Positions 385 through 21,885 of a stretch of DNA of 64,000 nt are shown here, piece by piece. The notes beneath the pieces are model-generated. The model made no database searches. It worked only from the letters and a program-made list of their open reading frames with translations, and had not been told where the DNA came from. This DNA is from Candidatus Aenigmatarchaeota archaeon (GTDB lineage Archaea; Aenigmatarchaeota; Aenigmatarchaeia; Aenigmatarchaeales; JACQIB01). Within the stretch, counting starts at the first letter, position 1. Every line of letters begins with the position of its first letter. The stretch is taken from assembly GCA_016198755.1 (NCBI GenBank), contig JACQIB010000005.1:1-64000 (forward strand), written 5' to 3'. The position numbers were made by a program, and so were the translations under genes.

Positions 385-387
385 TTG

Positions 388-1374: not shown

Positions 1375-1375
1375 A

Positions 1376-2272: not shown

Positions 2273-2440
2273 AAAAATAGTTCTCTGCACCCCCATATAA
2301 ACCAATTTATACCTTTGCCAACATAACTTTACTATGCCATTCAACTGTGCACAGTGCACACAGCAGTGCTCTGAAGATCCAATAGAATTAGACGGAGTAA
2401 ACTTCTGCCCGCGCTGCGCGCGCGAGTTTGCTGAGAACCC

Positions 2441-3478
2441 CTAGTGGTAACTTAGTCCTTTGAATGAGGGATTTTTCTGCTCTGCTCCCGCAGAGCCTGG
2501 AGCGCGGGAAGCGCTTGACCAGTTTGAGAAAAATTCAGAAACAATTCCTGCAGTCCTTTTTGGCTCTCCCCTCCCATCCTTTACAACCCTAAGTATCCCA
2601 AATCCCCTATCATCCTTCTCCAGCAAATTCCATACAAAACAACCCTGCAATTCAGCTGCTGCTATCCCTTTCAACTGCTCACTCAATCCAACGATCTGTG
2701 TGTCCTCATCATACTGTGTATTAGGATGCTCTGCTAAAAACTGGGAGGCAAATGAACCCTGCTCTATAGCCCCCTTAAAACTTGCAGTCCCAAATTGGGA
2801 GAGAACAGTGGGCTTTCCAGCTGCCTTCATCCTTCTCAGAACCTCCCCAAACCTGCCCCTGTTCCAGTGGCTAAGGTAAAGGTTTGTGGAAGCAAAATCA
2901 AACTTCTCCCATTTAACTTTTTCCCATGGAGCGCATGAATATGTTAAAGGAACTTTAGCTGTTCTGGCTTTCCTTGCTAGAACAACCAGCAGCTTGTTCA
3001 GCTTTTGCTCAAGGCTCTTGCTATAGCTGTCTGCTGCTCTCATAACCCTTGGGAAAAGCTTAAGCTCCTCCTCAGGAGCCAAAACAATCTTTAGATAGGC
3101 TGAAAGAGCCTTTGCACGCTCCTCATAATTCTTCCCTTTAATTAACCCCCTGCACTCCAGTGTAAGCTCATTTCCAACTGAGAAAACTATCTGCGCTGCG
3201 GGATTTGCCTTTTTAAAATCCCTAACAAACAAAACAAAAGGCTCAATAGCTTTCAGGTACTGTGCAGGTGTTTTATTCCTGAAAATTGGAACAATCCAAA
3301 CCCCCAACTCAAGCTTTATTGCTATTTCAGCCACAGATTTTACCCTTTCCAGCTCTGTTCCAACAATCCTGACACAGTTCCCGTTCATGTTTTTCAAAAG
3401 CTGCAAATGCTGTTTCACAACCTCCGGCTCGACCGGCTCCGGCCCATCCAGCACATAGTTTGCCCCTAGAAAGCGCAT
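2441..3478 (-). CDS. Glycoside-hydrolase-like TIM barrel protein (similar to proteins annotated as abortive infection protein)
   Basis: GANY N-terminus, NCVRIVG, SVGNELTLE and GKPTVLSQFG motifs match a GH-A clan layout. Confidence 0.6.
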   Translation of the reverse strand: MRFLGANYVLDGPEPVEPEVVKQHLQLLKNMNGNCVRIVGTELERVKSVAEIAIKLELGVWIVPIFRNKTPAQYLKAIEPFVLFVRDFKKANPAAQIVFSVGNELTLECRGLIKGKNYEERAKALSAYLKIVLAPEEELKLFPRVMRAADSYSKSLEQKLNKLLVVLARKARTAKVPLTYSCAPWEKVKWEKFDFASTNLYLSHWNRGRFGEVLRRMKAAGKPTVLSQFGTASFKGAIEQGSFASQFLAEHPNTQYDEDTQIVGLSEQLKGIAAAELQGCFVWNLLEKDDRGFGILRVVKDGRGEPKRTAGIVSEFFSNWSSASRAPGSAGAEQKNPSFKGLSYH

Positions 3479-3512
3479 GCCATAAAATTACCCTTAGTAT
3501 ATAATAAAGGTT
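3454..3512. repeat. Direct repeat copy 1 (start and promoter of the GH-like gene)
   Basis: 3454-3478 matches 4044-4068 at 24/25, and 3498-3512 matches 4088-4102 at 14/15. Both are at the same 590-bp offset. Confidence 0.85.
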
Positions 3513-3536
3513 AGCTTTGCGTAGACGTTGTACATG

Positions 3537-3758
3537 CTAACCTTCCACGGCCTTTAGGAACTCCTCTCTGTCTATTTTGGCCTCTCTTATTATGGATCTT
3601 AACAACCCTCTTCCTATTTCTTCCCTATAGGGCACAACTGTGGACATGCCATCAGCATGTTTTAGTATTATATGGCTTCCTTTTTGCCTTACAACTTGAA
3701 ACCCAAATATTTCTAGAGTTTTGATTACTTTTTCTGATGAAAGGGGTATCAGCTTCAT
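3537..3758 (-). CDS. hicA: HicA family toxin (mRNA interferase)
   Basis: 73 aa with GFQVVRQKGSHIILKH and IGRGLLRSII; adjacent to hicB. Confidence 0.9.
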   Translation of the reverse strand: MKLIPLSSEKVIKTLEIFGFQVVRQKGSHIILKHADGMSTVVPYREEIGRGLLRSIIREAKIDREEFLKAVEG

Positions 3759-3768
3759 AAAAGCCCTC

Positions 3769-3990
3769 CTACCTCAAAGGAATTTCTATCCTTTGCATTC
3801 CAACGAATTCCATATGGTCTTCTATTGCCCCCTTATTCACTTCTAGATAGAGCTCTATGGCTTCCCGTATCCTTTTCATCAACTCGTCAAGATTCTTAGC
3901 TTGTGTGTGGCATCCAGGAAGTTCGGGAACAGTGGCTACGAGATAACCATCCTCATCCTTCTCTATTACCACATCAAAAATCTTGTTCAA
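3769..3990 (-). CDS. hicB: HicB family antitoxin
   Basis: VIEKDEDGYLVATVPELPGCHTQA...IREAIELYLE. Confidence 0.9.
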   Translation of the reverse strand: MNKIFDVVIEKDEDGYLVATVPELPGCHTQAKNLDELMKRIREAIELYLEVNKGAIEDHMEFVGMQRIEIPLR

Positions 3991-4043
3991 AATATCACCT
4001 TATACTTTATTGTATTCTAAGCTTATTTAAAGATTTCATAGAG

Positions 4044-4102
4044 CATAGTTTGCCCCTAGAAAACGCATACCCCTATATTTGCTTTCCTATATAATGAAGG
4101 TT
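4044..4102. repeat. Direct repeat copy 2; on the - strand it encodes a truncated MRFLGANYAL* gene start
   Basis: Partner of 3454-3512; lies just beyond the stop codon of the giant gene at 4113. Confidence 0.85.
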
Positions 4103-4112
4103 GGGGTTGACA

Positions 4113-7100
4113 TCAGCGTAACCACCAAAATTGTTTAGGCTGGTTGGAGTGGGAAAGAAGCTCAATCATGTTCTCTGCATTAAGGTGCTCTCCATACCTG
4201 ATAGATTTCCCAACATCCAGATAGGCATCCCCAACCCTTCCTTTGTCTATTGTGTTTTTCAGCCAAGTCTGTAACAATAACCTAATATTGCGTATCTGTG
4301 ATAAGCTTATTATATTATTTTCCAAAAGCTGGTCATACATACCAAGAGCCATTCTTGCGAGATTCCTGTCTCCAGTTCTGGATGCAAGCAACTCTGCAGA
4401 TATTATCTGTTCTATATCGCGGGGAGTAAATGCTTTTTTATTTTCTATTATATAATCCATTTCAGCCCCTGTTTCCAGTACCAGCCTTTTAACTCTCTCG
4501 TTGAAAGCTTGTTTTCCAACAAACCTTTTTATACTAGCATCAGCCTCCAATTCTGTAAGCCATGTCTGTCTATAGTATTTTGATGTAAAATCTGCATATT
4601 CTTTAATATCCGCAAACCTATTCTGAGCTACCCATAAATGTCCCATCTCATGCTCCACAACTCTCCCTTCCAGCATATCAATAATAGGCACAGACTCGTC
4701 AAAAACTAATGTATCATAACCTGCCATGGCAATGGAATTTTCCATTTTCTCGTAAATTATTGTATTTAGAGAAACTCCATATTTTTGTGCCCCCTCCTCC
4801 AACGACGGGACAAGCTGTGCCAAATGTACCCACTGCTCATCTGTGAGATCTGGGAGGAAACGAGACATCTCAGATCTTACAGCTGTTATTTCACCCCCGC
4901 TACCCATTTTGAACGCAGCTTTATGAAAGGGTATTTTATTGGGATCCAGCCTCCCATATCCCACAACTTCTACAACCTCTACACCCTGCTCTTCAAAGAA
5001 TTTTATAACATTCCTCGGCATATTGGATTTCGGAGTGGTTGTCACCCACTTTATTCCTGCACCCTTATCCAGAGATCTAAATCTATTGAATGTAGTTCTA
5101 TACTTGTTTATGAACTCTCCAACACCGCCCTTGCCTTTTATGTGAGTAAGCGTATCAAATTTTGACTCTACAAAAAAACGTTTTGATCCAATCTCAAAAA
5201 ACCCATCTACATCAACCTTCCCAAATAAAGAAGCTTTCTTCCAAAATGAAGGTACAGTCTTTCTGGTCACTTCCCCGGTAAATTTCAGCTCCGCTCCAGA
5301 AGCCCTGTATGCTTCATTCACATTCAATTCAAACTCATGTCCCAAAATATTTCCAGCTAGACCACGAGCTGAGCCAGACCTTGCAGTAGCCATTTCTAAC
5401 CTGTATGCGTCTCCAGCACCACCAGAAACTCTACTGGCAGTTATTGCAGCATCCCCAAACTCAACAGCTTTTTTAGCCCCGTTTCCCATTTGCATGGTTA
5501 ATTTAACATCCCTTACGGCAGTCAAGGCTTCAGCCGCGCGCGCAGCCTTCCCAACCTTGCCTACATTAGCTAATTCTGCTATAGGCGGCATTGGCGCAAG
5601 TAACTGTATTGCCTCCCCTGTGCAGTTGCCTGCCCCATAAGCAGAGCCTGTGCAATATTTCCATATGGAAGTAGCTGCCCCTGTTATAAAATTTGATGTA
5701 CCGTTGTAGTACTGCATAAATCCTGGACTATCCGCAAAATACCATATCACCCATACAGGTGTGCCGAAAACCAAGGCAGCTCTTGTCACATTTACGAGAA
5801 CTTGGCCGCCAGCATAAAGGAAGTTACCTATGGAATTACTTTTATCGTTAAGATATTGATTGAACCCATCCCTGTCCAGAAGCATCCATCCACCCATGAC
5901 GATTGGATTGCTGAGGATTAACGTATCCCTTGTTAAGTTTGTGAGAAACTGGCCGCCGTTTTGAAAGGAATCCCACATTCCATGTCCAAAACTAATGGCA
6001 GAATCGCGCTTTTCAGCTAACCATTTTGACGCTCCGTTTGGGTCAACAACAGTCCACATAGGCAGCACAGATACGGTTAGAGCATCCCTTGTCAAATCCG
6101 TGAGAAATTTCCCCCCCCCTTCAAGATTGTTCCACAAACCTCCTAGGAACCCCTGTTTATTTTTTTCTACTTGAATACGCTGCTGCTCCAGTTGCCATTT
6201 CCATTCCTGCGCAGCCTGCTGGTCTGTTATAGCATCTGAGTTAAATATTCTGACAGGATAACCATTGTGAACACGTGTTATGTTCCTGATTGATATGGAA
6301 CTTTCATTCTTTATTCTTATTATGTTGTCATTATACATATCTACATATCTATTCTGTTCAGCAACCAATTCGTCCTCGTTTTCATCTATAAACCCTTTCA
6401 AAATTCCCATACTATCCTTAATTCGGGCTTTCAGCTCAGGGTTGATGCCTGGGCGGTTGTAAATTGACTGCAACCCATAATAAAGTTCTATTGATTTCTT
6501 AGTACTATTTCCATTGTTGTTCTGTATCAGTGCATTAACATCGTCTGCAACCTGTTTGTCTGTTCTTATCTGCTCTACTGTTTTTGAGATATCTTTCTTA
6601 ACTGCAGAGTTTAGGTAAGGATCTGAAGTTAGCTTTTCAAGACTATCTACATCCGTATCAGACAGAAGGCCGTTTTTTGCCTTCTCTTGCAATCTTTCCA
6701 ACTGATCCAGCGCAGGCTGGTCCCTTCCTGTAACTTTCCCGCCAGAAAAAGTCCATCCCATTCCATTAACAGAAGGAACAGAATCTGGATGATCCCATGG
6801 GTTCTGTGCACCCGGGACAGAACTCCAGTATTTTCCATCGCGGGTATAGTAGCCATCATTTCCTTTTATCAGCGGTATCCCTCCGCCTGCTTCAGCTGCC
6901 TCCCTTTCAGCTTTCATTTGCCTCTCTTCCTGAAGTGAAGTAAATAGTGCTTCCGTGCGCGATTTAATTTCAGATAACTTCTGCCCAGTATATTCTATAA
7001 GTTTTTGCACATCCTCCTTCAGGCTCCTTGTATAAGATTTAAGTTGACCCACAACGCCTTCAGGTATTACTCCGCCATTGGATTTTGGATAAGTTTTAAT

Positions 7101-9692
7101 AGGGAGCCTGCTTGAGCGCTGGTACCTTAGTCCAGTATAAACCCCGCCTGCAGCAATAGCTGAAATTCCCAATGTGGTAGCTAATGCTGTGCCGTTTATA
7201 GGAGATGCATTGTTCGCAGGCTGAGGAGAGTTGTCTCCTGAACTAATAACAAATGGATATGCTGCGACAAAAATATTGGTATTGTTATTAACAACGACAT
7301 CCTTGGATTTTGTTTCGTATCCCATCCTCGAGCCTGAGATGGGGATTACAGAGCAAGCCACCTTGTCACCTGCTTTAAATGCAAAATCTGGAGCTGCAAC
7401 AGCTTCATCATCCCCTGTGAGCGATTGCGAAGTTGAAACTTTCGTAGCATTCACATACCAGTTTATTTCAACCAACCCTGCAGCATCAGCACTGCCCCTT
7501 CCCGCAGACTGAATATGCTGATACGCGCTCTGTATCTGAGCTGCTGTTAGTTCTCCATTCCAGATCTCAAGCTCATCTATCATTCCGCCAAAATTATAGC
7601 CATCCCCAGTTGCCCATCCACTTATCCTCGCATTTGGATTTACAAGACCGGAAGCTGTTGAGCCCAATCTTTGGGTTAGAGTTTGCTGCACACCATTAAT
7701 ATATAGCTTGTTTGTTTTCCCATTTCCATTGCTGAAAACAGCAGCAACATGAACCCACTTGTTTGCTAATCCAGCACTGCTTATTCCCCAGACATCTGTA
7801 TTGCCTGTGTTAAAGCCAAACGAACCATCCTTAAAATAAAGATCGTACCTATCAAACCCAAAAGGCATCTGTCCATGTGACCCTTCAGAACCATTCCAAT
7901 ACATCCAAAAATCAACTGTTACATAACTGCCGGGAGCTGTGTCAATCTCAGGAATTATCAAAGCAATATAATCATCTATCCCATCAAAGCTGTATGCTTC
8001 CTGTACCTTCCCCGGAACATTCGTTGTTCCCCCTTTCAAAATTCCTGTCTGCCCACCCATAAAACCATTAGGATTAACATCTCCTGACCACCAGCCCAAA
8101 AAGTTTTGTGGGGGGGTAGCTGACTGGTCAATATAACAGGATAACATATCGTCTGTTGAAGGATTATACGGCTCTATATGCGCGGAATCCACAATATTTG
8201 GTTGTGGAAGGAGCTGGATTTCCGCGGAATTTACTTTCTCCCCCTCGAATATACCAACAACCGGCACAGCTGAACAGTAAACTCTATCCCCTTTATTGAA
8301 ACTATATGTTTGCAAAATTTTTCCAGTTCCAACAGCCTGCCAATTAACATACCATATTATCTTTGTCTGCCCAGCACTCTCCACATCGCATTCCATTTTT
8401 TCCCCAACTATCGGATCTGAGGGGTAGATAGAAATAGAGTTTATCGGTAGAAAATTACTAAAAATATAAGTTTTTTCAGTTTTTGCAATGGAAGATAGCC
8501 TTGTTCCGGAAGATTGGAGAGAAAGCGCATAGCAATGATCCTCAAGTGTATAGGAAATTTTTATATGACTATTTACGCAACTATTCCATCCTGTTTTACT
8601 GTTATAATCCTCTGTCCATACCGGACCCAAACAGACTATGTTGGGATTGTGAGTGGGTGGGTTTGTGCCTGTTGTTATACAACTTCCCCCACAACTCTGT
8701 TCATATCTTCCAAGGAGCTGCGGGTTGGCTGTATACAAATCCACAACATCATCCTTTGTAAACGTCAGCTTTGCAGGTCCTTGGGGACTGTTGGGCTGAG
8801 GACCGCTAAATTGTCCTATGTTTATTCTCCTTAATGGTTGTGGTTGCCCAAGCCCATAATATCTTAGTTCTATGTTATAGGTTCCCTGTTCGTTTGCTGT
8901 TATGGATTTGTCAGGAAAACTCATCCAGGATCCGCCACACTCGTACGTGTTCGCCCAGCCAACAGGAACCTCTGTTTGTGTTTCTTGTCCGCTGGGAGAA
9001 ACAATGATACGCGTGAATTTTGTTTGGCAAGTAAAATCCTCCCCTCCATTGAAGCCTTTTGATCTTGCAAGATTCTGCAAATCCGCAAACCACCGTTTAA
9101 ATTCAGGTATATTAACTGATATGGGAGCTGTTGGTGGAGGTGGCAGTGGTTGAGCATATTTCCATACTGTTGCCCCCGGAATTTCTATATGTCGTACCTC
9201 TATTTTATACATACCAATTCCCTCTATGTACACGGATTTTTGAGGCAGACCCCTTTGGTTATAATAGTGAGCAACTGGGCACGTTATTGAAGTTGCTGTT
9301 TCATGGAACTCACTCGGAGTTTCAGATTTTGTTCTGGTATAACAATTGCTATCTGTAGCCGAGCTTGTTGGTTGATTGCCAGGGAAAAAATACTGATCTA
9401 TAATCTGCTCTGAGCCATCTGGTTTTACAAGAACCCTGTAATAAATATGGGATAACATAGCAGCTATATTATCAGCTTCAATTTTCTGCCCAAACACCCG
9501 AGCCACAGAGCAGGTTTCCTCCCATGCCCCGTTTACGGGCTTCCAGTATCTATCTGTTGACTCTCTGTTAAAAGAATAGGGAGAGAACCATTCGTTCAAC
9601 GACAGGGACTCTGCAGGAGCTTCTATTATCTCAGCGAAAACAGGAAAAGAAAACAACGAGAACAGAAAAACTATCATAACAACAAAAAGCAT
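4113..9692 (-). CDS. Giant protein A: secreted, membrane-anchored, polymorphic-toxin-like (LamG, Ig-like repeats, TM, pre-toxin-like motif, PD-(D/E)XK-like nuclease, HEXXH domain)
   Basis: Signal peptide MLFVVMIVFLFSLFSFPVFA; LamG (AYSFDGIDDY...WVHVAAVF...FGGMIDELEIWN); TM at about 7130-7190; WKYCTGSAYGAGNCTGE; DVDG...FVESK; VEHEMGH...ELEAD. Confidence 0.75.
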   Translation of the reverse strand: MLFVVMIVFLFSLFSFPVFAEIIEAPAESLSLNEWFSPYSFNRESTDRYWKPVNGAWEETCSVARVFGQKIEADNIAAMLSHIYYRVLVKPDGSEQIIDQYFFPGNQPTSSATDSNCYTRTKSETPSEFHETATSITCPVAHYYNQRGLPQKSVYIEGIGMYKIEVRHIEIPGATVWKYAQPLPPPPTAPISVNIPEFKRWFADLQNLARSKGFNGGEDFTCQTKFTRIIVSPSGQETQTEVPVGWANTYECGGSWMSFPDKSITANEQGTYNIELRYYGLGQPQPLRRINIGQFSGPQPNSPQGPAKLTFTKDDVVDLYTANPQLLGRYEQSCGGSCITTGTNPPTHNPNIVCLGPVWTEDYNSKTGWNSCVNSHIKISYTLEDHCYALSLQSSGTRLSSIAKTEKTYIFSNFLPINSISIYPSDPIVGEKMECDVESAGQTKIIWYVNWQAVGTGKILQTYSFNKGDRVYCSAVPVVGIFEGEKVNSAEIQLLPQPNIVDSAHIEPYNPSTDDMLSCYIDQSATPPQNFLGWWSGDVNPNGFMGGQTGILKGGTTNVPGKVQEAYSFDGIDDYIALIIPEIDTAPGSYVTVDFWMYWNGSEGSHGQMPFGFDRYDLYFKDGSFGFNTGNTDVWGISSAGLANKWVHVAAVFSNGNGKTNKLYINGVQQTLTQRLGSTASGLVNPNARISGWATGDGYNFGGMIDELEIWNGELTAAQIQSAYQHIQSAGRGSADAAGLVEINWYVNATKVSTSQSLTGDDEAVAAPDFAFKAGDKVACSVIPISGSRMGYETKSKDVVVNNNTNIFVAAYPFVISSGDNSPQPANNASPINGTALATTLGISAIAAGGVYTGLRYQRSSRLPIKTYPKSNGGVIPEGVVGQLKSYTRSLKEDVQKLIEYTGQKLSEIKSRTEALFTSLQEERQMKAEREAAEAGGGIPLIKGNDGYYTRDGKYWSSVPGAQNPWDHPDSVPSVNGMGWTFSGGKVTGRDQPALDQLERLQEKAKNGLLSDTDVDSLEKLTSDPYLNSAVKKDISKTVEQIRTDKQVADDVNALIQNNNGNSTKKSIELYYGLQSIYNRPGINPELKARIKDSMGILKGFIDENEDELVAEQNRYVDMYNDNIIRIKNESSISIRNITRVHNGYPVRIFNSDAITDQQAAQEWKWQLEQQRIQVEKNKQGFLGGLWNNLEGGGKFLTDLTRDALTVSVLPMWTVVDPNGASKWLAEKRDSAISFGHGMWDSFQNGGQFLTNLTRDTLILSNPIVMGGWMLLDRDGFNQYLNDKSNSIGNFLYAGGQVLVNVTRAALVFGTPVWVIWYFADSPGFMQYYNGTSNFITGAATSIWKYCTGSAYGAGNCTGEAIQLLAPMPPIAELANVGKVGKAARAAEALTAVRDVKLTMQMGNGAKKAVEFGDAAITASRVSGGAGDAYRLEMATARSGSARGLAGNILGHEFELNVNEAYRASGAELKFTGEVTRKTVPSFWKKASLFGKVDVDGFFEIGSKRFFVESKFDTLTHIKGKGGVGEFINKYRTTFNRFRSLDKGAGIKWVTTTPKSNMPRNVIKFFEEQGVEVVEVVGYGRLDPNKIPFHKAAFKMGSGGEITAVRSEMSRFLPDLTDEQWVHLAQLVPSLEEGAQKYGVSLNTIIYEKMENSIAMAGYDTLVFDESVPIIDMLEGRVVEHEMGHLWVAQNRFADIKEYADFTSKYYRQTWLTELEADASIKRFVGKQAFNERVKRLVLETGAEMDYIIENKKAFTPRDIEQIISAELLASRTGDRNLARMALGMYDQLLENNIISLSQIRNIRLLLQTWLKNTIDKGRVGDAYLDVGKSIRYGEHLNAENMIELLSHSNQPKQFWWLR

Positions 9693-9788
9693 ATATTTTG
9701 TAAACAATTGTCCCCGCCATTTAATTGTATGGGTGACAATATAAACGGGAGTGATAGTTTGATATAGTAGTATGTATACTGTTATACT

Positions 9789-10754
9789 ATGCACCACATA
9801 AACTTGGAGGCTGCTGGATTAACAAAACAGCAGGGTGATATTATAAGGTCTATACTTTTCCTGAAGTCTAATGGAATAAAAATTGCACCTATAGAGATTT
9901 ACACAGCATACCAGAAAGTTGCAGGAAAAGCCATACAAAAACCAAATCTTTTTGCACAATTAAGGACCATGGCAGATTTGGGTTTTCTTGTTAAAACTTT
10001 AGGGGAGTATCATGTAAATATGCAGGCTGTTGTAAAAGCTGCCAGAGAGAAAAAGAAAAATCTAGAAGCTGAACTTGAAAGGCTAAAGGAGGAAACAGGA
10101 AAGCTGGAAAAGTTTTCCAAAAATCCAGAATTCCAGTCAAACCTTCCTGTCTTGCAGTATCTAGACCAAAATTCATACTTTGATGCCGCAGCATATCAGA
10201 TGGCAGAATCAGAAGAAATTTACACAAACAGCGTATTTCCATGGATATGCTTCCCCTACCCCATGGCAGAAGCTGCAAAATCCATAAACTACTGTGTACA
10301 GATGCAGAAACTCTGTGAGAAACGCTCGCTTAATGTGAAGTATATTTCCGCATTTAACTGCGAATACTTTGCAGGCTTGGCTTTGAAAGCAGCTAATGGA
10401 AATAGGAAAGGTGCATTAGATTTGTGTTCACAAGCTTTGCAGAACATGAGGAATATGCTTAAACTATACCCGACACTTTCAGTCAGGTTTATGCCCCGTT
10501 CATTCGATATGCACTTTATTGTTACAAAACCTAAGGTGGGAAATCCCTATAATGCATACTTTTATTTTTACGCCGGTCCCGGAGTTATACAGAGCGGTGT
10601 TGTAATTAACTCCCCTGAGCTTGCCTGCAATCTTTACAATGCATTTAACAGGGAATTTGACCGTGCAGTGGATTTGCGCTCTGCGCGCGGTAAACATATT
10701 TTAGATTCAATTGGAAAGGAGCTTAGAAAGCTGATAATAAAAAAGCTGGTTTAA
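9789..10754 (+). CDS. TrmB-like transcriptional regulator (winged HTH, coiled coil, effector-binding domain)
   Basis: LEAAGLTKQQ N-terminus, NLFAQLRTMADLGFL wHTH, and C-terminal VINSPELACNLYNAFNREFDRA, which is typical of TrmB-type domains. Confidence 0.6.
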   Translation: MHHINLEAAGLTKQQGDIIRSILFLKSNGIKIAPIEIYTAYQKVAGKAIQKPNLFAQLRTMADLGFLVKTLGEYHVNMQAVVKAAREKKKNLEAELERLKEETGKLEKFSKNPEFQSNLPVLQYLDQNSYFDAAAYQMAESEEIYTNSVFPWICFPYPMAEAAKSINYCVQMQKLCEKRSLNVKYISAFNCEYFAGLALKAANGNRKGALDLCSQALQNMRNMLKLYPTLSVRFMPRSFDMHFIVTKPKVGNPYNAYFYFYAGPGVIQSGVVINSPELACNLYNAFNREFDRAVDLRSARGKHILDSIGKELRKLIIKKLV

Positions 10755-11230
10755 TCCTGGGCTTTAAGCGGCAGCACATGCGTGTCTTTTGATTTGTGAA
10801 GGGCAAACATTGTTACAGTTCTGGCCACTTCAGGCATGTTCCAGAGACTGTCCACAACCCAGCTCCCAACAGCTTTTTCATCCTTCCCCCTTACTTTTAT
10901 CAACGCATCATAATCTCCGCTTATTACATGCACCTCCTCTGCTTCAGGTATCTTTGCTAGAGTTTCTCCTATATTCTCTGATTTTATCCCACCCTTTTTG
11001 TGGTATGCTCTCCTCACAAGAATAAATGCTGTTGTAGGCAAACCAACCTTTTCCGGATCCAGAATTGCAGAAAATCCCGTTATAACTCCGGTCTGCACAA
11101 GTTTTTTTATTCTCAAATGGATTGTTGTAGCTGGGATTTTCAGCTTCTTTCCCAACTCCCTTGTAGACTGCCTGCAGTCTTTCTGCAATTCCACCAGTAT
11201 TGCCCTGTCCAGCCTGTCTAAATTGTCCAT
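10751..11230 (-). CDS. Lrp/AsnC family transcriptional regulator
   Basis: LDRLDRAILVELQKDCR...RIKKLVQTGVITGF; EVHVISGDYD. Confidence 0.95.
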   Translation of the reverse strand: MDNLDRLDRAILVELQKDCRQSTRELGKKLKIPATTIHLRIKKLVQTGVITGFSAILDPEKVGLPTTAFILVRRAYHKKGGIKSENIGETLAKIPEAEEVHVISGDYDALIKVRGKDEKAVGSWVVDSLWNMPEVARTVTMFALHKSKDTHVLPLKAQD

Positions 11231-11370
11231 TTATTTACCTCTTTTACTGTACAAAATACATATAAACTGCCGTATATTTAAAGCTTCTGTGTACATTTGT
11301 TCAATTGAAAGTACAGTTATATACCTGCCTGCACAAACTCTGGGTGGGGGAAGTGCACCACAAAAATAAT

Positions 11371-14300
11371 ATGTTCATTCTTATCTTCTTTTTCACTTTA
11401 ATTGCTGCGCTGCCTTCTGCTGTTATTGCTGCTGATGTTGTATATACTGCAGACAACACTCCAGAGCAGGCTGGCTGGAGCGGTTCCGGCGGGGGTTCTG
11501 TTTCTGTAAGCAGCGGCATATTGGATGTAAACAAGCCTGCTAATACACATTATTATTTTAACAAAAATGTTCCTGAACTGGACAATTCTATAGGAACAAC
11601 GTTCGAGGCAAGAGTAAAAATTGTTTTCGGAGGAATGACAAGTGGCTATTTGTCTGAACATGGGACAGAACATGCTTATGGAGCCTATTTTGATATAAGG
11701 GACGGGACAAGACTGGGTGGAGTGGCTATTGGGGATAATAAAATAGAATTTGGAAAACAGTTCTTTGCAATGGACACAAAAAGTGATTTCCATGTTTACA
11801 GGCTTACTCTACGGGGAGATTCTATGCTGTTGTATATTGATGGAAACTTTGTTGCAACTGAAAAAGCTTCCACAGCTTCTGGTAGTGTTATAACTGCTGC
11901 TGTTTCAACAAGCAGCTGGACTGGTAATGGGGAATCTTTGTGGGATTATATAGCTTACACATCTACTGGAGCATACCCTGCAAATTCTTATTCATTTCCT
12001 GGGCTGCCTGTAATCATTAAAAATATCTTAATAACTCCTATTGCTGTTGAAACTACAGCATCCACAACAAGCACTACCACAACTACTATAGCTCTTACAA
12101 CACCAGCATTCCCAGTTAATGAAATAACACCAAAAAGCTGTCCTATATACATTACAAACCCATGCAGCGCAAGCGAAGTATACGATGATAAAACATGTTC
12201 GTGTGTTAAAAAGCCTGAGCTTGATATGATAGAATATTCCGGAGATCTTCTGCCAGCCAAGTCAACCCCTGCATGGACAGATATAGCTGCTACATGGGCA
12301 AATTCTGTTTCAGACGGGGTGTTAAAAATAGCTGGCCCACCAGGGGAAATGAACGGATATAAGCTGAAGTTAGAAATAACACCTTACGATGATTTTACAA
12401 TAGAAGCTAGGCTGAAGATTGAGGAAGCAGACCCTGTATATGGATTGTTATTGGAGTTCTGGGATGGAAAAAAGAATGAAGGGCTTATTCTGCATAAAGA
12501 TAGAATAAGGCTTATGATGGGAAAAACAGAATACAGGATGGATACAACAAGCTACCATACCTACAGGATAGAATTTACGCAGAGGGATAAAAAAACAAGG
12601 GTTTTTGTGGATGGGAAAGAGGTGCTGAGCGGGACAGGTGTTTACTATACTGATGCATACAAAGGAATAGCAATAGGGCATATAGTAACAAACGTTGGAA
12701 CAAGCAAAAGTTATTGGGATTATGTAAAATTCTGGTATGGGGCTTCAGAAACACCGCCGGAAAAAGAAAAGGATGGATTTGTTTCCACAGGAACTTTCTG
12801 TTCAGACAAGGAACCCTCGGCCTTAATTTATGCTCCTTATACAGCCTCAACATCTGCTTTCCGGGCTGATTACTATGTAAATAGTGTTCCGATGGATTAT
12901 ACGGGTCAGGCATGCGATTCCCCAACGCCTTCAACAGGCTTATACACATACAATTTCAAAGTTGCTGTCGGGTCAGGAGTAGAAAAAACTACACACCAGT
13001 ATAGGGGGCAGGTTTGCCTTCCAACTTCCTGTAAAGAGTATATTTCCAGCTTCAAAAAATCCAAAACATTAGAACTGCCAGAGGGAAAGTACATGCTTTC
13101 CCTTTCAGCTTTCGTTAATGATATTGCAGCCAGATCACAAATAGATTCTGCAGCTGAAATTTATACAGCAAATAGGCTGCCTGGCAAGGAAGGGTGGAAC
13201 ATTGTGGGAGGTGTTGATAGTCTTTCTGTAAACGGCGGTATACTTTACTACAATGGCCCAGCAGGTATCCACTACCTATCCAGAGATATAGCTGCTGACA
13301 ACTCCATTGGAACTACTGTTGAGGCCAATATGAGAGGTATTCCCAAGTCTCCCCTTGCAGCTATAATAGATGTGGCTGATGGGAAAGGCTATATTGAAAT
13401 GGAGTTGAAACCCAGTTGGATAGTTTTTGGCGGGCAGCAATATGATTTTGATGCAAGAGACAGCTTCAATACATATAGGATAACGTTGAAGGGTAATGTA
13501 GCAACTCTCTATCTAAACGGAAAATACTTTGCTACTGCAACACCCATAGAGACCAATGAAAATGAGGTTATTTTTGGAAAATCCACAAAAGAGTCTTCAG
13601 CTGCTGCAAACTCCCAATGGGAATATATTGATTATACAACCTCAGGCGCCTACTCACCCGATGATTATTCATTCCCGCAGATTTCATATACGCATACTAT
13701 AGAGGTTTCTGCTGATTATCCTGTTATATATCCACAAATAACGGAGCATATTTCCATACCATCTGAAAAAATTTCCCTTGATTCTTGGACAGACCCTTAT
13801 GATATTAACACACATACTTCAACTGGCGGCTGCGGCGCAAACAGCTGCAACAGCAATGAACAGAAAGAAACGTCCCCATCCATAAAAATCGCATCTTCCA
13901 ATAAGTACACTTTAGACACATATATTTTTTACAGGGTTTTAGTAAAGCCTGATGGTTCAGAGGAAATAATAGACCAGTACAAGTATAACAACCATATATC
14001 AACTAGGTCTGAGCCTGTACAAGGGCAAACTGGAGTTAACAGGTATTTTGCTGAGTATACCCTGCCAGAGAAGATTTTGGAACTGAAAGGGGCTGGGGAT
14101 TACACGGTAGAGGTAAGAAGGATAAGAATACCGGCTCTGACTGCAGAAAAAAACCCAAACATCGGCATAGATTCTGTTGTAAACTTGTACGATGCGGAAC
14201 TTATAAACAACCATACATTTGAAACAGGTTGGGAAAAGTTTCCAGGACAAGAGCGCAGCTGGAATCATGACTACTATATGTGTACCAAAACTCCGGCGAG

Positions 14301-17300
14301 TATATTTAGCTCAACTGGTTCCTTAGACCTGACAAAAGTGACAGACAATGCATGCGTAAACCTGAATATGTTCCAAGTCAATGAAAGCTATTGCAAATTC
14401 CCTTACCAGTCCTACAGGTACCTGCATACCAGCTACCAGAGTCTTGTATATAACGACTATTATGATCTTATACAAGATTGGAAATATCAGAGCTGCTGGC
14501 TTGAGCTGCTAACCAATAAAAGTATAAGCACAAAGTCTCTAGGAGAGAACATAGCAGCTTATGTTTATAGTGCAAACGATGGGGGCGTGGATGTTGCCCC
14601 AGCATACGAATACAGGAAACTTGCTGTGGGTGACAGGTTTTCAATAACGCTATCTAATGGCTGGAAAATAGAAAAGCTGGACACAAACTATATTTCTGCA
14701 ACCCACGAAGGCGGCCTTTGCACAGACAGCATACCTCCAGTATGCTCCATACCCTATGAATTTAAGGCGCTGAAAGAAGGGAACACAAAAATTGTCTTGA
14801 GCAGTGTTGGAGCAGGTATAATAGAAATAAAGGTGGTGGAGCTGGATATAGAAGGAAGTCCTGCTGCATTCCCATTTGTGCTGGATGCCGGGCATGGTAA
14901 TGGTACTTCCGGTGCTACAGGGGACAGCACGAGCAATACAGGAACAGCTCCGCTTGCTTTTGTTATAACACTTGCTGCTGGGGCTGGAGGAATTTATGCT
15001 GTTTCCCGTGGGGCTTTGGCTGGCAAAAAGCTTTTCGGAGACGATACTCTAGGAACTGGAGAGAGAAGGAAAGTGCCGCTGGAGATAAAAATTGACGATA
15101 GCAAAAGAAAACCTGCGCACGTGATTTATACTGGAGATGGGGAGGTAAGATTAAGAGGGGAATTTTTAGCTAAGAATGGTATACAGGTTTGGAACGCGAA
15201 TGAAAATACATATGTTTCTCCGCTCCTAACTCTTCCCTTTGCAGAAAATGCAAACGACATGCTTCCCCCTCACTCAAAGCCCACATACCAGCCAGCCCCG
15301 CCTATAAAAACCGTGCCCGGAGGAAACTGGGGAATGAAAGGAGCTGCGCCTGTGCAACGCCCACCAGAAACAAAGGCTAGCAAAGCAACTGCTGCGATTG
15401 TGAACAGCGCCAAAATAGCGTTGGGTCTAACTGGTTCTGCAAAAACTTTTGGCCCTAATAAAATAGTAAACGCAGCAATTCTCGGCTCTTTTGCTGGTAT
15501 ACAAAACAACACTAACAAGAAATTAATCACCATGAAAGATAAAATTATTAATGGTGTCGGCTCTTTATTTGGAAAAATAGGTGGAATGTTTGGAAATATA
15601 AAAAATCCAGAAGAATTTATGGATAAAAATGGTCCCTATATAGCTCTGGGACCAAGTGGAATAGGATTCAAAGCTGCAAGGTCGCTTACGCAGCTTTTTG
15701 AAAATAAAGCTTCTGGCATCCCAATCTTAGGCAAGATAGCAGGCGGTTTAAGGGCAGTTGGAGACTTTGGCTATGGTTTTGGTAAATCCCTATATAATAC
15801 TGCTAAAGGACTCGTTTATGACTTACCTAAAGCTGTTTACAACTGGGCTACCACAAGCAAGGACCATTGGGGAGATATTAAGAATGCTGGTAAATTCATT
15901 GCTAATGGAGTTTCTTGGATGGCTATCCATCCAGCAGAAACCGGGGGAATGATTAAAAACCTGGCCCAGCAGGCCTGGAATTACTGCACAGGTTCTTTTA
16001 TGAATGCTGGTGAGTGTACTGGAGAGATTGCACAATTATTTGTTGGGGGTGGAACCGTAGGAACTGTTTCAAAGATCGGGAAGGTTGCTAAGGTTGTTGA
16101 GGGAGTAGAAACAATTACAAAAGCTGAACGGGCTTTAAATGTCGCTGGAAAAGCCGGAGGTATTGCAAGAAAAACGGAAACTGCTACAACCGTTATAAAA
16201 ACAATAAAAGTTAATTACGGAAAGCGCATAGGGGAGATTGTAGAAGGTATAGCAAAAAACAGCAAATATAATAATCCTGAGAAGTTGGAAAACCTAGCAA
16301 AGAAAATACAGGCTCTGACCAAGAGTGACGAGGCTGGGGCTTCAATGGAACTCAGGAAACTTAGGGAAGCTATTAAAAATGGGGATGAAATTTACGACAT
16401 CAACATGAGGGGAAAGATTACAAAAAATATCATAGATATAGATAGACTTGGCAAAGAAGCCAAAGGAGCCAAATATGCAGCTGAAGTAAAGTCTGTTACA
16501 CCCCAAATGATGCAGGACGCAAAATCGTGGAAAAATTGGATACGAAAGGATATATTAGATACAGGCAGAAAGTTGTCGGATGCAAAAAAAGAGATACCAG
16601 AACTTCGTGATATAACCAAGCTGAAATTTGAGCTTCCAACAGATTCTTTAAAAGCCAGGCTGCCAGATGGTACATCCTTTGAGAAACTATTGAAAGAAGA
16701 GTTAAAGAAAAGCTTAAAGATGGACAAACCTGATTTTGAAGTGGTTCTGAATGGGAAGGTAGTAACTGCAGAAAGTGGCTTGTCTCCCGCTGCAGAGGCA
16801 AATCTCTGGAGGGCTCTATTTCCTATGGAAAAATCTAGTGAAATAACGAAAATTGAAAAGGTTACTAGCAGCATAAGCAGAATAGAAAAACCTACCGGTA
16901 AGATTTCAAATTTAGGCAAAACTATAGAAGCGGAAGAGTTAACAAAACTATCATCATATAAAAAAGCAACCCTATCTGCAGAAAAGATTGAAAAAACCTT
17001 TAATCAGGAATACAGAAAAGCCCTTCTGAAAGAGTTTCCTGATATGAAAAAGACAAAGCTAAAAGTAGAAGATATAACAGAAAAGTTCGTGGGACATATA
17101 ACGCAAAAAATGCCGCTTGCCTCAACTAGGGATGTCGAAGGCCTTTGGCAGAAATTTGGGGGCAGGATAACTGATATAACTGTTTATAGAAAAAGGGTAC
17201 AGGGATTGGTGAAAAATGGATTGGATGGTGTGCCAGAGCTGACAAAAACAGAGAGCACAAAGTGGATTGTACAGCACGAATTAATGCACCAAGCGAGCAA

Positions 17301-17544
17301 AGAGAGTGATATATTCTGGCAAAAGTACTGGAGACTGCTATTTAACGAGAAGGCTCCTTCAGCTCAAGTAAGGGCTGAGATACTGAAGGATACGTACATG
17401 GGAGAGGTAATAGCTGATATAGCAACAGTAGATAGGTATCCAAAATACAAGAAATTCGCTGATGTAAGATATGGGAGGGATTTTAACAAAGTAGTAAATG
17501 ATTTTAAAGATACTTTTAAGGGCAGAAATACTGTTCTAGGATAA
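11371..17544 (+). CDS. Giant protein B: secreted, membrane-anchored, polymorphic-toxin-like (three ConA/LamG-like repeats, chagasin-like Ig domain, TM, pre-toxin-like motif, PD-(D/E)XK-like nuclease, HEXXH domain)
   Basis: Signal peptide MFILIFFFTLIAALPSAVIA; TM LAFVITLAAGAGGIY; WNYCTGSFMNAGECTGE; DIDRLG...AAEVKS; QHELMH...EVIAD. Shares several blocks with protein A. Confidence 0.75.
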   Translation: MFILIFFFTLIAALPSAVIAADVVYTADNTPEQAGWSGSGGGSVSVSSGILDVNKPANTHYYFNKNVPELDNSIGTTFEARVKIVFGGMTSGYLSEHGTEHAYGAYFDIRDGTRLGGVAIGDNKIEFGKQFFAMDTKSDFHVYRLTLRGDSMLLYIDGNFVATEKASTASGSVITAAVSTSSWTGNGESLWDYIAYTSTGAYPANSYSFPGLPVIIKNILITPIAVETTASTTSTTTTTIALTTPAFPVNEITPKSCPIYITNPCSASEVYDDKTCSCVKKPELDMIEYSGDLLPAKSTPAWTDIAATWANSVSDGVLKIAGPPGEMNGYKLKLEITPYDDFTIEARLKIEEADPVYGLLLEFWDGKKNEGLILHKDRIRLMMGKTEYRMDTTSYHTYRIEFTQRDKKTRVFVDGKEVLSGTGVYYTDAYKGIAIGHIVTNVGTSKSYWDYVKFWYGASETPPEKEKDGFVSTGTFCSDKEPSALIYAPYTASTSAFRADYYVNSVPMDYTGQACDSPTPSTGLYTYNFKVAVGSGVEKTTHQYRGQVCLPTSCKEYISSFKKSKTLELPEGKYMLSLSAFVNDIAARSQIDSAAEIYTANRLPGKEGWNIVGGVDSLSVNGGILYYNGPAGIHYLSRDIAADNSIGTTVEANMRGIPKSPLAAIIDVADGKGYIEMELKPSWIVFGGQQYDFDARDSFNTYRITLKGNVATLYLNGKYFATATPIETNENEVIFGKSTKESSAAANSQWEYIDYTTSGAYSPDDYSFPQISYTHTIEVSADYPVIYPQITEHISIPSEKISLDSWTDPYDINTHTSTGGCGANSCNSNEQKETSPSIKIASSNKYTLDTYIFYRVLVKPDGSEEIIDQYKYNNHISTRSEPVQGQTGVNRYFAEYTLPEKILELKGAGDYTVEVRRIRIPALTAEKNPNIGIDSVVNLYDAELINNHTFETGWEKFPGQERSWNHDYYMCTKTPASIFSSTGSLDLTKVTDNACVNLNMFQVNESYCKFPYQSYRYLHTSYQSLVYNDYYDLIQDWKYQSCWLELLTNKSISTKSLGENIAAYVYSANDGGVDVAPAYEYRKLAVGDRFSITLSNGWKIEKLDTNYISATHEGGLCTDSIPPVCSIPYEFKALKEGNTKIVLSSVGAGIIEIKVVELDIEGSPAAFPFVLDAGHGNGTSGATGDSTSNTGTAPLAFVITLAAGAGGIYAVSRGALAGKKLFGDDTLGTGERRKVPLEIKIDDSKRKPAHVIYTGDGEVRLRGEFLAKNGIQVWNANENTYVSPLLTLPFAENANDMLPPHSKPTYQPAPPIKTVPGGNWGMKGAAPVQRPPETKASKATAAIVNSAKIALGLTGSAKTFGPNKIVNAAILGSFAGIQNNTNKKLITMKDKIINGVGSLFGKIGGMFGNIKNPEEFMDKNGPYIALGPSGIGFKAARSLTQLFENKASGIPILGKIAGGLRAVGDFGYGFGKSLYNTAKGLVYDLPKAVYNWATTSKDHWGDIKNAGKFIANGVSWMAIHPAETGGMIKNLAQQAWNYCTGSFMNAGECTGEIAQLFVGGGTVGTVSKIGKVAKVVEGVETITKAERALNVAGKAGGIARKTETATTVIKTIKVNYGKRIGEIVEGIAKNSKYNNPEKLENLAKKIQALTKSDEAGASMELRKLREAIKNGDEIYDINMRGKITKNIIDIDRLGKEAKGAKYAAEVKSVTPQMMQDAKSWKNWIRKDILDTGRKLSDAKKEIPELRDITKLKFELPTDSLKARLPDGTSFEKLLKEELKKSLKMDKPDFEVVLNGKVVTAESGLSPAAEANLWRALFPMEKSSEITKIEKVTSSISRIEKPTGKISNLGKTIEAEELTKLSSYKKATLSAEKIEKTFNQEYRKALLKEFPDMKKTKLKVEDITEKFVGHITQKMPLASTRDVEGLWQKFGGRITDITVYRKRVQGLVKNGLDGVPELTKTESTKWIVQHELMHQASKESDIFWQKYWRLLFNEKAPSAQVRAEILKDTYMGEVIADIATVDRYPKYKKFADVRYGRDFNKVVNDFKDTFKGRNTVLG

Positions 17545-17596
17545 CGAAGTAAATATACATCATGCGAGGTGAAATAGCTTCATTTTGTGCTTTGCG

Positions 17597-17640
17597 TATG
17601 TTACAATTTAACATATTGTATGTTATATAATATTAACATA
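17597..17640. repeat. Two TATGTTA..TAACATA inverted repeats overlapping a dif-like 28-mer
   Basis: TATGTTA-N5-TAACATA (17597-17615) and TATGTTA-N8-TAACATA (17619-17640). ATTTAACATAT-TGTATG-TTATATAATAT at 17606-17633. Confidence 0.45.
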
Positions 17641-17643
17641 AAA

Positions 17644-17827
17644 TGGTGCCCCCAATGGGATTTTCTCCCTAGTTTTGAATTCATGCTACGCGGAAAATTT
17701 GCTCCGCGCAGTCCCATGTGTCAAGCTTGAGAAGCTTGCATCCTTCTCCGTGCCCTGGCTACCTGAGGGGGTAGGCCGGTAGGGGGAAACTTCCCCCTGC
17801 GGGCGGACCGGACTAGACGATGGGGGC
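17644..17827 (-). tRNA. tRNA-Glu(CTC) with three predicted introns (17745-17806, 17680-17712, 17661-17673) and encoded CCA
   Basis: Removing the 62, 33 and 13 nt inserts gives a 76-nt cloverleaf: GCCCCCATCGTCTAGTCCGGTAGGATGCAAGCTTCTCAAGCTTGACACATGGGTTCAAATCCCATTGGGGGCACCA. BHB central helices TCCG/CGGA and CATG/CATG. Confidence 0.88.
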
Positions 17828-17926
17828 AAGAGTTGTTTGGGGAGAAGAAGTTTAAAAGCCTTATGTTTAGGCCTGCGCCCCTATAGGAAGAAAAGGGATT
17901 TAAGCCTTCTGTGCAAGGCATTTGCT

Positions 17927-21258: not shown

Positions 21259-21885
21259 ATGCTGCGAAATGTATATATGAGAAAAAACAACGATCAACCA
21301 CACTACAATTCAGTGGCACTTTTAGATGCGAATACATTTGTGAGTGCGGCCTGTGGAAGAGGAGGAAAAGCCTATAATTTGTTAACATCATCCTTTCTAA
21401 AAACTGCTTCGGGCGCATTGGCTATGGCTGATATTACAATGAGAGAGGCAGAAGGTGTGTGCGAAAGAACGGTTAATCAACAACCATTTGGTAGATTAGT
21501 TGGCTCTATTAAAGGTTCTCCAATGCCTTTCCTGCTGATAGAAACAGGATTCTTGAGTGCATGGTATAGAAGTGTGGAAGCCACAATAAAAGAGTTAAAT
21601 GAATACGGAAGCCTTGTAGACTCTACACACAGAGAAATTGTACAAAAAATGCCTGTAGATATTAGAAGGCTGAGAGCTTCATGCGGGGATAGGATTGTTG
21701 CATACTCTGCTCTTTATTTAAGGAAAAGTGTTGCAGATTCTGTTTCGATTGTTACATGGGATTCTGATTTCGATGGTATAAAAGAGGACTTGAGAACACT
21801 TGGAATTGAAGTCTACAATGCAAGAGAATATTTAAATCATAAAAAAGCAGTGGCGGGCCCGGAGGGATTTGAACCCCCGGTCTGA
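21259..21885 (+). CDS. PIN-domain protein (paralog 2); 3' end overlaps tRNA-Arg
   Basis: LLDANT, SCGDRIVAYSALYL, IVTWDSDF. Confidence 0.7.
   Translation: MLRNVYMRKNNDQPHYNSVALLDANTFVSAACGRGGKAYNLLTSSFLKTASGALAMADITMREAEGVCERTVNQQPFGRLVGSIKGSPMPFLLIETGFLSAWYRSVEATIKELNEYGSLVDSTHREIVQKMPVDIRRLRASCGDRIVAYSALYLRKSVADSVSIVTWDSDFDGIKEDLRTLGIEVYNAREYLNHKKAVAGPEGFEPPV

Follow-up and report, generated by a model that had tools for sequence, protein, structure and literature searches.

Two giant type-I membrane protein genes of an aenigmatarchaeal genome and the mosaic family to which they belong

Giant genes A and B and their parts

The window analysed here is a stretch of 64,000 nucleotides (contig C3:1-64000) of the aenigmatarchaeal genome G000 (890,842 bases, 6 contigs, 89% complete), and this report concerns two giant genes within it, called A and B, which are divergently oriented with two genes between them. 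The DNA of the locus is present in four DNA runs, all from one groundwater metagenome study. An original prediction made from this DNA had described the pair as twin polymorphic-toxin-like genes around two regulators. The two giant open reading frames (ORFs) are real and of the predicted size: the likely starts, ATG 9692 for A and ATG 11371 for B, give ~1859 and ~2057 amino acids (aa), and the database records comprise 1854 and 2063 aa. These likely starts put a strongly hydrophobic segment (Kyte-Doolittle 2.6) at the N-terminus of both proteins; the ESM Atlas entry of the gene A protein begins at residue 36. The parts of gene A are the following.

4113..9797, minus strand: gene A, giant type-I membrane protein, 1894 aa from the farthest start
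9633..9692, minus strand: A, N-terminal hydrophobic signal sequence, residues 36-55 (Kyte-Doolittle peak 2.64 at 36-54, then FA-EII), presumably cleaved
9159..9647, minus strand: A, family-specific ectodomain with YRVLVKPDGSE, residues 51-213 (BLASTP match to B809-949)
7530..7982, minus strand: A, Laminin_G_3 / concanavalin-A-like lectin domain, residues 606-756 (Pfam PF13385)
7107..7265, minus strand: A, AAYPFV, G/S/N/P linker, Ala/Gly-rich transmembrane (TM) helix (871-890) and basic cluster RYQRSSR
5772..6119, minus strand: A, three Gly-rich amphipathic repeats GG(K/Q)(F/V)L(T/V)(D/N)(L/V)TR(D/A)(A/T)L, residues 1227-1342 (read from the translation)
5469..5834, minus strand: A, conserved pre-module with WKYCTGSAYGAGNCTGE (Cx9C) and GKVGK, residues 1322-1443 (BLASTP match to B)
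4863..5405, minus strand: A, putative restriction-endonuclease-like module, residues 1465-1645 (E..D..ExK by eye)
4116..4877, minus strand: A, type-1 HExxH domain, modelled as gluzincin, residues 1641-1894 (alignment and AlphaFold2 (AF2) model)
4638-4652 and 4536-4553, minus strand: A, HEMGH and ELEADA

Gene B is composed as follows.

11305..17544, plus strand: gene B, giant type-I membrane protein, 2079 aa from the farthest start
11428..13704, plus strand: B, three concanavalin-A-like/3-keto-disaccharide-hydrolase-like lectin modules with linkers, residues ~42-800 (Pfam)
13729..14151, plus strand: B, family-specific ectodomain with YRVLVKPDGSE, residues 809-949
14863..15030, plus strand: B, AAFPFV, G/S/T/N linker, Ala/Gly TM helix (1215-1233) and basic cluster SRGALAGKK
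15667..16104, plus strand: B, conserved pre-module with YNWATTSKDHWGD .. WNYCTGSFMNAGECTGE .. GKVAK, residues 1455-1600
16177..16794, plus strand: B, second putative nuclease-like module, unrelated to that of A, residues 1625-1830
16945..17541, plus strand: B, type-2 HExxH domain (HELMH at 17275-17289; Glu of GEVIADI at 17401-17421)

All motifs on which the original prediction was built occur in both proteins and in the same order. These are the hydrophobic N-terminus, YRVLVKPDGSE (A120-130, B876-886), AA(Y/F)PFV (A845, B1187), the G/S/N linker, the TM helix ending GG(V/I)Y (A871-890, B1215-1233), W(K/N)YCTGS..AG(N/E)CTGE (A1379-1395, B1558-1574), GKV(G/A)K (A1413, B1592) and HExxH (A1716, B1991). 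By BLASTP, significant similarity is found for A51-213 with B809-949 (32% identity, E 4e-18), which holds the identical 11-mer YRVLVKPDGSE, and for A1322-1443 with B1484-1623 (30% identity, E 4e-10). The remaining ~85% of the length of A and B showed no significant pairwise similarity; the HExxH regions reached E 0.15 and the PFV/TM region E 0.26. Since only two blocks are significantly alike, A and B are, as judged by their sequences, mosaic relatives and not twins, and they represent two of eight mosaic paralogs in the genome.

Within the ectodomains only modules of lectin type are recognised by Pfam. The Laminin_G_3 match of A has E 9.4e-17 and 62 bits against a cut-off of 27.6. In B, the 3keto-disac_hyd match (E 3.8e-6, two stretches) lies with 27.5 bits just over the cut-off of 26.8, and pieces of the ectodomain weakly match Laminin_G_3 and GH16. 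Matches to A outside G000 are confined to A526-775, the Laminin_G_3 region, and were obtained in 17 of 40 related genomes. No known S-layer or adhesin family covers A or B in the Pfam and NCBIfam searches, in keeping with the original prediction, which recognised no named system in this architecture.

A family of eight genes and the exchange of its tails

A search of the genome with A and B, followed by an all-against-all comparison, revealed a family of eight genes linked by shared modules in different combinations. The family takes up ~40.1 kb of the 890,842 b, corresponding to 4.5% of the genome, and its members range from 1.3 to 2.1 thousand aa (kaa). Besides A and B it comprises C2_80003 (1663 aa), C2_16450 (1279), C2_55687 (2064), C2_50813 (1606), C2_5835 (1260) and a gene in two parts, C2_284 and C5_191767. 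C2_284 is open to the start of its contig, and because the end of contig C5 (193107-193177) overlaps the start of contig C2 (1-71) by exactly 71 nt, the two contigs join and the two parts are one gene, called the C5/C2 gene below. The contigs break here because near-identical sequence of the TM helix and tail start is common to three paralogs. Six of the eight genes lie within the first 85 kb of contig C2, one of them spanning the C5/C2 junction. Relatives from elsewhere are the metagenome protein P0006, P0012 from genome G265, a protein of genome G214 (1354 aa), which has the full family layout, and P0019 (1282 aa), a compact B-like member. Laminin_G_3 is matched by the ectodomains of C2_55687 (1e-26) and P0019 (7e-14), and DUF2341 by that of C2_50813 (2e-15).

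Full-length members share a hydrophobic N-terminus, an ectodomain, a juxtamembrane stretch and a tail of 650-1000 residues. The juxtamembrane stretch consists of a (N/S/Y/F)PF(V/I)xD(S/A)G-like motif (PFVxDSG), a G/S/N linker, an Ala/Gly-rich TM helix and basic residues; within this genome, PFVxDSG together with the TM helix is found in family members only. In A and B the helix precedes the basic clusters RYQRSSR and SRGALAGKK, respectively, and this pattern is common to all members. Because the basic cluster directly follows the TM helix, the tail is predicted to lie on the cytoplasmic side of the producer, where the hairpins described below would keep it. The view that the proteins are modular and anchored to the cell, by a predicted TM helix, was already part of the original prediction and is retained. 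An archaeosortase-type signal (PGF-CTERM and kin) was considered for the juxtamembrane stretch and rejected, the tripartite signal being internal and followed by 650-1000 residues. The archaeosortase family PF09721 was not found in G000 (89% complete), and the positive control was found in M. jannaschii.

The tails start with a helical stretch, which is followed either by a Gly-rich amphipathic part with a Cx9C block or by a glycine-zipper-like hydrophobic hairpin, and then by a Lys/Gly-rich linker. Behind the linker, some members carry a nuclease-like module, and seven of the eight G000 members carry one or two HExxH domains. In A, the three Gly-rich repeats precede the Cx9C block. This block belongs to a pre-module of ~145 residues, which is 49% identical among B, C2_80003 and P0006 (hidden Markov model (HMM) E 1e-80 for B) and has the consensus ..GKSxYNTxKxLVYDLP..YNWAxTSxDHxGD..WxYCTGSxxNAGECxGExAQLFxGG..K.GK. 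Weaker versions are present in A and in C2_50813, the latter without both Cys. The hairpin, 40-50 residues long, Gly/Ala-rich and hydrophobic, is found in C2_55687, the C5/C2 gene, C2_5835, P0012 and the G214 protein and sits at the same position of the tail as the pre-module of other members. No Pfam, NCBIfam or PADLOC family matched any tail at significance; the best PADLOC match among 12 proteins was capP (E 0.02), on a single stretch of ~44 residues (1902-1945) including HExxH. In the C5/C2 gene (C2 part at 2-3226), the type-2 HExxH of the tail is followed by one more strong TM helix and then by a region that contains Cys, a third HExxH (HEYGH) and a weak match to CarboxypepD_reg; this tail may cross the membrane again.

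Two types of HExxH domain were distinguished. In a phmmer search with A895-1894 against 1.84 billion representatives, eight proteins matched at E<=0.001; seven of these matches are confined to the last ~230 residues of A, and three of the proteins have the lengths of paralogs of G000 itself. In the alignment of this type-1 domain, H76, E77, H80, R87, E109 and E111 are invariant in all eight sequences, which are 22-39% identical. A conserved helical part of its own, with WLKNTIDKG at the end, closes the domain at the C-terminus. Neither a Pfam family above cut-off nor a PDB sequence match was obtained, and single members gave weak Pfam matches to SprT-like, Peptidase_M78, Reprolysin_2 and MPTase-PolyVal. 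The AF2 model has a predicted local distance difference test (pLDDT) value of 81.2 and a predicted TM-score (pTM) of 0.80. In an exhaustive VIA-align search its top matches were LTA4H (Z 7.0, root-mean-square deviation 4.3, 174 aligned) and BepA (Z 6.9, 3.6, 134), followed by thermolysin (Z 5.9), ZMPSTE24 (Z 5.7) and the minigluzincins abylysin and jannalysin (Z 5.0), and 16 of the 20 top rows bear titles of zinc metallopeptidases. As in the gluzincins (M48 BepA/Ste24, M1 LTA4H, M4 thermolysin and archaeal minigluzincins, at Z 5.0-7.0), HExxH is accompanied in the modelled domain by an invariant Glu 29-31 residues downstream. We accept a gluzincin fold for the type-1 model because these structural neighbours are taken together with the invariant motif, and we regard the family as undescribed.

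In the type-2 domain, also seen in P0006 and P0019, H111, E112, H115, F124, W125 and E154 are invariant in three of three sequences, the Glu lying 39 residues downstream. The idea of a common terminal domain family in A and B was dropped, as hhalign gave a probability of 2.2% for type 1 against type 2. Of the HEXXH/zincin domain given to both proteins in the original prediction, the part concerning A stands, whereas the domains of A and B are different families. The extreme tips are these two HExxH types with conserved catalytic motifs and do not correspond to the variable nuclease tips originally expected.

Sharp breaks in similarity occur inside the tails. Identity among C2_16450, C2_5835 and the C5/C2 gene is ~90% through the TM helix and over ~125 residues of tail behind it; farther on, the three are unrelated. 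One of the three divergent tails contains a type-1 zincin and one a hairpin, and in the third a long helical part is combined with a hairpin and a type-2 HExxH. P0006 and C2_55687 are 70.7% identical over 805 columns of the ectodomain and 59% over the next 436, and then lose their similarity abruptly after '..PLIGQPI'. Past this site, P0006 has a B-like block and a type-2 HExxH, and C2_55687 has a hairpin and the B-type module; the terminal type-1 zincin is 40.6% identical. The C-termini of homologs are accordingly not invariant, as had been anticipated. Because the breakpoints are sharp and lie behind ~90%-identical or 59-71%-identical sequence, they indicate, at the level of sequence comparison, a recent exchange of cassettes and not slow divergence. 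This was seen in the trio and in the P0006 pair; for A and B themselves no close ortholog was found.

A further arrangement is provided by G265, a genome of the same class and another taxonomic family, in which the 1375-aa member P0012 is encoded (L034, C40, 3-4563). The stop of the P0012 gene is overlapped by a 91-aa ORF, weakly similar to winged helix-turn-helix proteins. This ORF in turn is overlapped by a stand-alone ORF, starting ~20 residues before an HExxH closely similar to that of P0012, and the contig ends inside this short zincin ORF.

The distribution of the family is narrow. Among 371 genomes of the phylum, G000 included, the type-1 zincin profile matched four, strongly only G000 and G265; the pre-module profile matched one, which is G000 itself; and the ectodomain profile (YRVLVKPDGSE) matched three, namely G000, G214 and, weakly, G003. 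Pattern scans of genome and metagenome contig collections gave no further relatives. In the two deepest runs (X1 and X2), the zincin stretch 4336-4880 of A and the distal tail of B (16037-16329 and 16668-17742) were found on contigs of their own, with lower depth than the rest of the locus (51.7, 44.1 and 50.0 against 73.2 in X1; 35.4 against 47.8 in X2). One X2 contig matches B solely from 16131 onward. This may be a weak hint at variant tails in the population.

Neighbouring genes and surroundings of the locus

Two genes are located between A and B.

9789..10754, plus strand: 321-aa orphan protein, divergent from A
10751..11230, minus strand: Lrp/AsnC-type transcription regulator, divergent from B

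The original prediction had taken both for regulators. This is correct for 10751-11230 (Pfam AsnC_trans_reg E 2.9e-13, HTH_AsnC-type E 3.1e-13), whereas the 321-aa protein matches no Pfam or NCBIfam family and was not found in the 40 related genomes searched. Neither in A, B and their paralogs nor among the neighbours within 4 kb was an ATPase family detected. In a synteny comparison for an inserted island, the epimerase genes flanking the locus were 31-36% identical to their counterparts in genomes of the same family, those being located on different contigs.

Next after gene A lies a HicB/HicA pair (E 2e-10 and 1e-17; 3769-3990 and 3537-3758, minus strand), flanked by a 66-nt direct repeat with copies at 3454-3519 and 4044-4109, which are 77% identical. 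The repeat is a copy of the start-codon region and the upstream TATA-like sequence of a gene for a 345-aa protein (2441-3478). Since the repeat lies on either side of the pair and copies the beginning of the next gene, HicAB (window 3454-4109) looks like a cassette inserted between gene A and the 345-aa gene, and not like an immunity gene. The 345-aa protein itself has no Pfam match and no signal peptide; a VGNE motif, found by eye, suggests that it could be a TIM-barrel glycosidase of clan GH-A. Further away, a 329-aa ORF (385-1374) shows a weak C-terminal match to TrbC/VirB2 pilin (E 0.0023, 18.5 bits, below the cut-off of 27.9).

The nearest downstream neighbour of gene B is an unmatched ORF of 147-177 aa at a distance of at least ~290 nt. 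Downstream of B there is also a GC-rich stretch (17640-17860) with an element of ~41 nt which recurs at seven other places of the genome. Both ends of this stretch match one place on contig C6. At the stretch itself the contig depth is doubled, and a joint skipping 134 nt (17663 to 17798) was seen in all four runs. The stretch may represent an intron-bearing RNA gene missed by ARAGORN and Rfam. A tRNA at 21854-21980 (minus strand) was detected by Rfam and not reported by ARAGORN; its length is 127 nt and it must therefore carry an intron.

Possible roles and comparison with known systems

Our tentative reading is that A and B come from a family of giant type-I membrane proteins that is restricted to its lineage and recombines, in a DPANN-type archaeon of groundwater with a genome of 0.89 Mb. 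The layout of the family is of SPEARE type and its evolution polymorphic-toxin-like, but it belongs to neither of these systems. In our view this reading is a serious possibility, short of being probable. The head would then bind glycans on a partner cell, either a host or a competitor, and the TM helix would leave the tail on the cytoplasmic side of the producer. At the site of cell-cell contact, protein and DNA derived from the partner would be the targets of the membrane-active module and the hydrolases of the tail, which would act on the inner side of the junction or cross it first. This would amount to a contact-dependent effector role, as it had been proposed for the pair at the outset.

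Several results have to be set against this proposal, and the first group concerns the nuclease identity of the modules in A and B, which we treat as a lead. By eye, the module of A shows the canonical pattern E1488 .. D1529/D1531 .. E1544-x-K1546; the PD-(D/E)XK-like assignment of the original prediction is likewise a reading by eye. The B-type module, common to B, C2_50813, C2_55687 and P0019, has E/D-x-x-K/R instead and lacks a canonical (D/E)xK. The ESM Atlas clusters nearest to the module of A are Tox-REase-7/-2/-5 (PF15649, PF15646, PF15648; score 0.90) and those nearest to the module of B are CDI_toxin_EC869_like (CdiA-CT EC869-like, PF21111) and Tox-REase-3/-5/-7 (score 0.91), scores which are also reached by 4-10% of shuffled proteins. 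Two unrelated modules are thus both nearest to the same kind of toxin nuclease clusters, a point in favour of the proposal. The nuclease-like modules have no Pfam match at E<=1 and no PDB sequence match, and a homolog search with the module of A returned 71 candidates, none at E<=10. AF2 modelling of the B-type module from a 3-row alignment gave a pLDDT of 49.0 and a pTM of 0.28, so that the predicted nuclease fold was not obtained.

The other objections concern the zincin, the topology, the delivery route and the population. The structural matches of the type-1 model are middling: VIA-align gave 21 chains with Z>=5, of which none reached Z>=8, and Foldseek found no match at E<=0.001 (best E 0.033, the weak rows being mostly zinc peptidases). 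The topology was derived from hydropathy and the positive-inside rule alone, and the TM helices are marginally hydrophobic (Kyte-Doolittle 1.6-1.9), that of A lying below the threshold of 1.6. No secretion or transfer genes flank A or B. Finally, the long contigs of all four runs reproduce the locus with 0 differences and represent one clonal sequence; because the public runs are clonal, swapping is seen between paralogs and relatives and not within a population.

The same features can be read as a classical system of polymorphic toxins or contact-dependent inhibition, in which the C-terminal modules would be exported, cleaved, perhaps by their own zincin, and used to kill competitors, with immunity protecting the producers. 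Such a reading, which we consider unlikely, draws on the constant heads and variable tails with sharp breakpoints, on the conserved block preceding the variable part, on the Atlas leads to Tox-REase and CdiA-CT EC869-like clusters and on the glycine-zipper-like hairpins in some tails. The gene order in G265, with a giant gene, a small gene and an orphan zincin fragment, would also fit. However, with a basic cluster behind the TM helix the tail is predicted to be cytoplasmic, secretion-system genes are missing nearby, and the extreme tips are conserved zincins instead of diverse toxins. Export and an adjacent immunity gene, which characterise the classical systems, were thus found for neither A nor B: no immunity-type gene lies downstream of A, where the HicAB cassette is located, or of B, where the gap is at least ~290 nt. 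A small coupled or adjacent downstream ORF is present in four of nine family genes, but these ORFs show no similarity to each other and match no family, including Imm. In favour of the classical reading, PVC-type toxins are noted to occur often without adjacent immunity genes (Zhang et al. 2012, PMC3482391). No Pfam Tox- or Imm-, NCBIfam or PADLOC match above threshold was obtained for A or B, and an Imm30 match inside B itself (E 0.004, 17.6 bits against a cut-off of 27) remained below threshold. Tail Cys depletion as a sign of export was reduced to a weak point. Ten of the 11 tails counted have 0-2 Cys, but in the control 111 of 355 windows also had <=2 Cys and 25 of 171 ORFs of at least 400 aa had <=0.25% Cys, so that low Cys is common throughout the genome.

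A variant without a dedicated secretion machine appears just as doubtful to us. In this contact-dependent effector system of a DPANN symbiont, which would need Sec only, polymorphic hydrolase cassettes would be kept on the side of the producer behind a weak stop-transfer helix and passed on after the lectin head has bound a host or rival. Insertion of the Gly-rich or glycine-zipper module into the membrane opposite would bring the nuclease and zincin cargo across. Its logic of secretion arrest and release would resemble that of CdiA, but it would operate between two archaeal membranes and without a secretion machine or a known toxin family.

A more conservative explanation is that the genes encode ordinary adhesins or envelope proteins. 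In this case the tail would anchor or mature the protein, HExxH would be a self-processing or quality-control peptidase, the 'nuclease' would be a false lead, and the differences would reflect old divergence of paralogs. It is true that the lectin domains alone match known families, that neither Pfam nor AF2 supports a nuclease fold, that immunity and delivery genes are missing and that the genome encodes many other giant surface proteins. However, the sharp breakpoints indicate recent cassette exchange, the catalytic residues of the zincin are retained at 22-39% identity, and tails of 650-1000 residues far exceed what an anchor needs, which makes this explanation somewhat less plausible still.

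Restriction-endonuclease-like, zincin and two-TM hairpin effectors are also typical of swappable defence effectors. An abortive-infection-type defence, with ectodomains as virus-binding decoys or sensors that would switch on suicide effectors (nuclease, protease, membrane hairpin) in a cytoplasmic tail, would profit from this resemblance of the tail repertoire, from a predicted location that requires no export, from the patchy distribution and from the toxin-antitoxin cassette beside A, but it is the reading we find hardest to believe, since PADLOC gave no meaningful match among 12 proteins, no other defence genes surround A or B, eight giant paralogs at 4.5% of a minimal genome are costly, and lectin-rich heads suit cell adhesion better.

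For the preferred reading of a recombining family of surface proteins, a comparison was made with the closest known systems. The literature on DPANN polymorphic toxins, laminin giants and contact-dependent effectors yielded no description of the family (bioRxiv supplements lying outside the scope of this search). DUF4157/PVC-metallopeptidase, a named signature of archaeal polymorphic toxins (PMC6393860), was not detected in proteins of the A and B family. In the Thermococcales, VARTIG (Makarova et al. 2021, PMC8416519) is likewise an archaeal large surface protein with Ig domains, whose C-terminus is hypervariable by recombination, and its organisation has been likened to polymorphic toxin systems in the same source. 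According to its description, however, what varies in VARTIG is an Ig domain outside the cell together with the genes downstream, whereas here an enzymatic tail behind a TM helix is concerned.

With the bacterial polymorphic toxin systems (CdiA, Rhs, MafB and others; Zhang et al. 2012, PMC3482391), the family shares a signal sequence with adhesion or presentation domains and the presence of several paralogs per genome. In both, a conserved block stands before a C-terminal part that recombination exchanges without touching the remainder, and modules of nuclease(-like), metallopeptidase and glycine-zipper type occur. The stand-alone cassette fragment downstream in the G265 locus adds to this likeness. 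In contrast to these systems, the variable part is preceded here by a stop-transfer TM helix, an immunity gene was not seen beside A or B, known Tox, PT and Imm families are not matched, T5/T6/T7/PVC machinery is absent, and the terminal domains are just two conserved HExxH types. Classical polymorphic toxin systems are reported to be rare in archaea in the same survey, and the family shows polymorphic-toxin-style evolution of cassettes in a lineage of this kind.

In layout the family resembles the giant SPEARE surface proteins described from Nanohaloarchaeota (Hamm et al. 2019, PMC6642349; annotation revised by Reva et al. 2023, PMC10266531). Both are proteins of DPANN archaea taking up ~4% of a tiny genome (here 4.5%), both have an ectodomain with at least one laminin-G and other adhesion domains, and both continue after one TM helix with an enzymatic C-terminus that is predicted to be cytoplasmic; for both, a role in contact with the host is proposed. 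SPEARE proteins differ by their length (3-8.5 kaa against 1.3-2.1 kaa here) and by their tail, which is a conserved VirB4/TraG(HerA)-like ATPase with a second such gene adjacent; such an ATPase was not detected here, where the tails consist of HExxH and nuclease-like modules and are swapped between paralogs. For the attachment of DPANN archaea to other cells and their exploitation, SPEARE proteins are the sole named candidates and their function is disputed. The present family, which fills 4.5% of a minimal genome, adds an undescribed gluzincin family and a conserved pre-module. With its membrane-anchored lectin heads and its exchangeable enzymatic tails it offers a second and different design.

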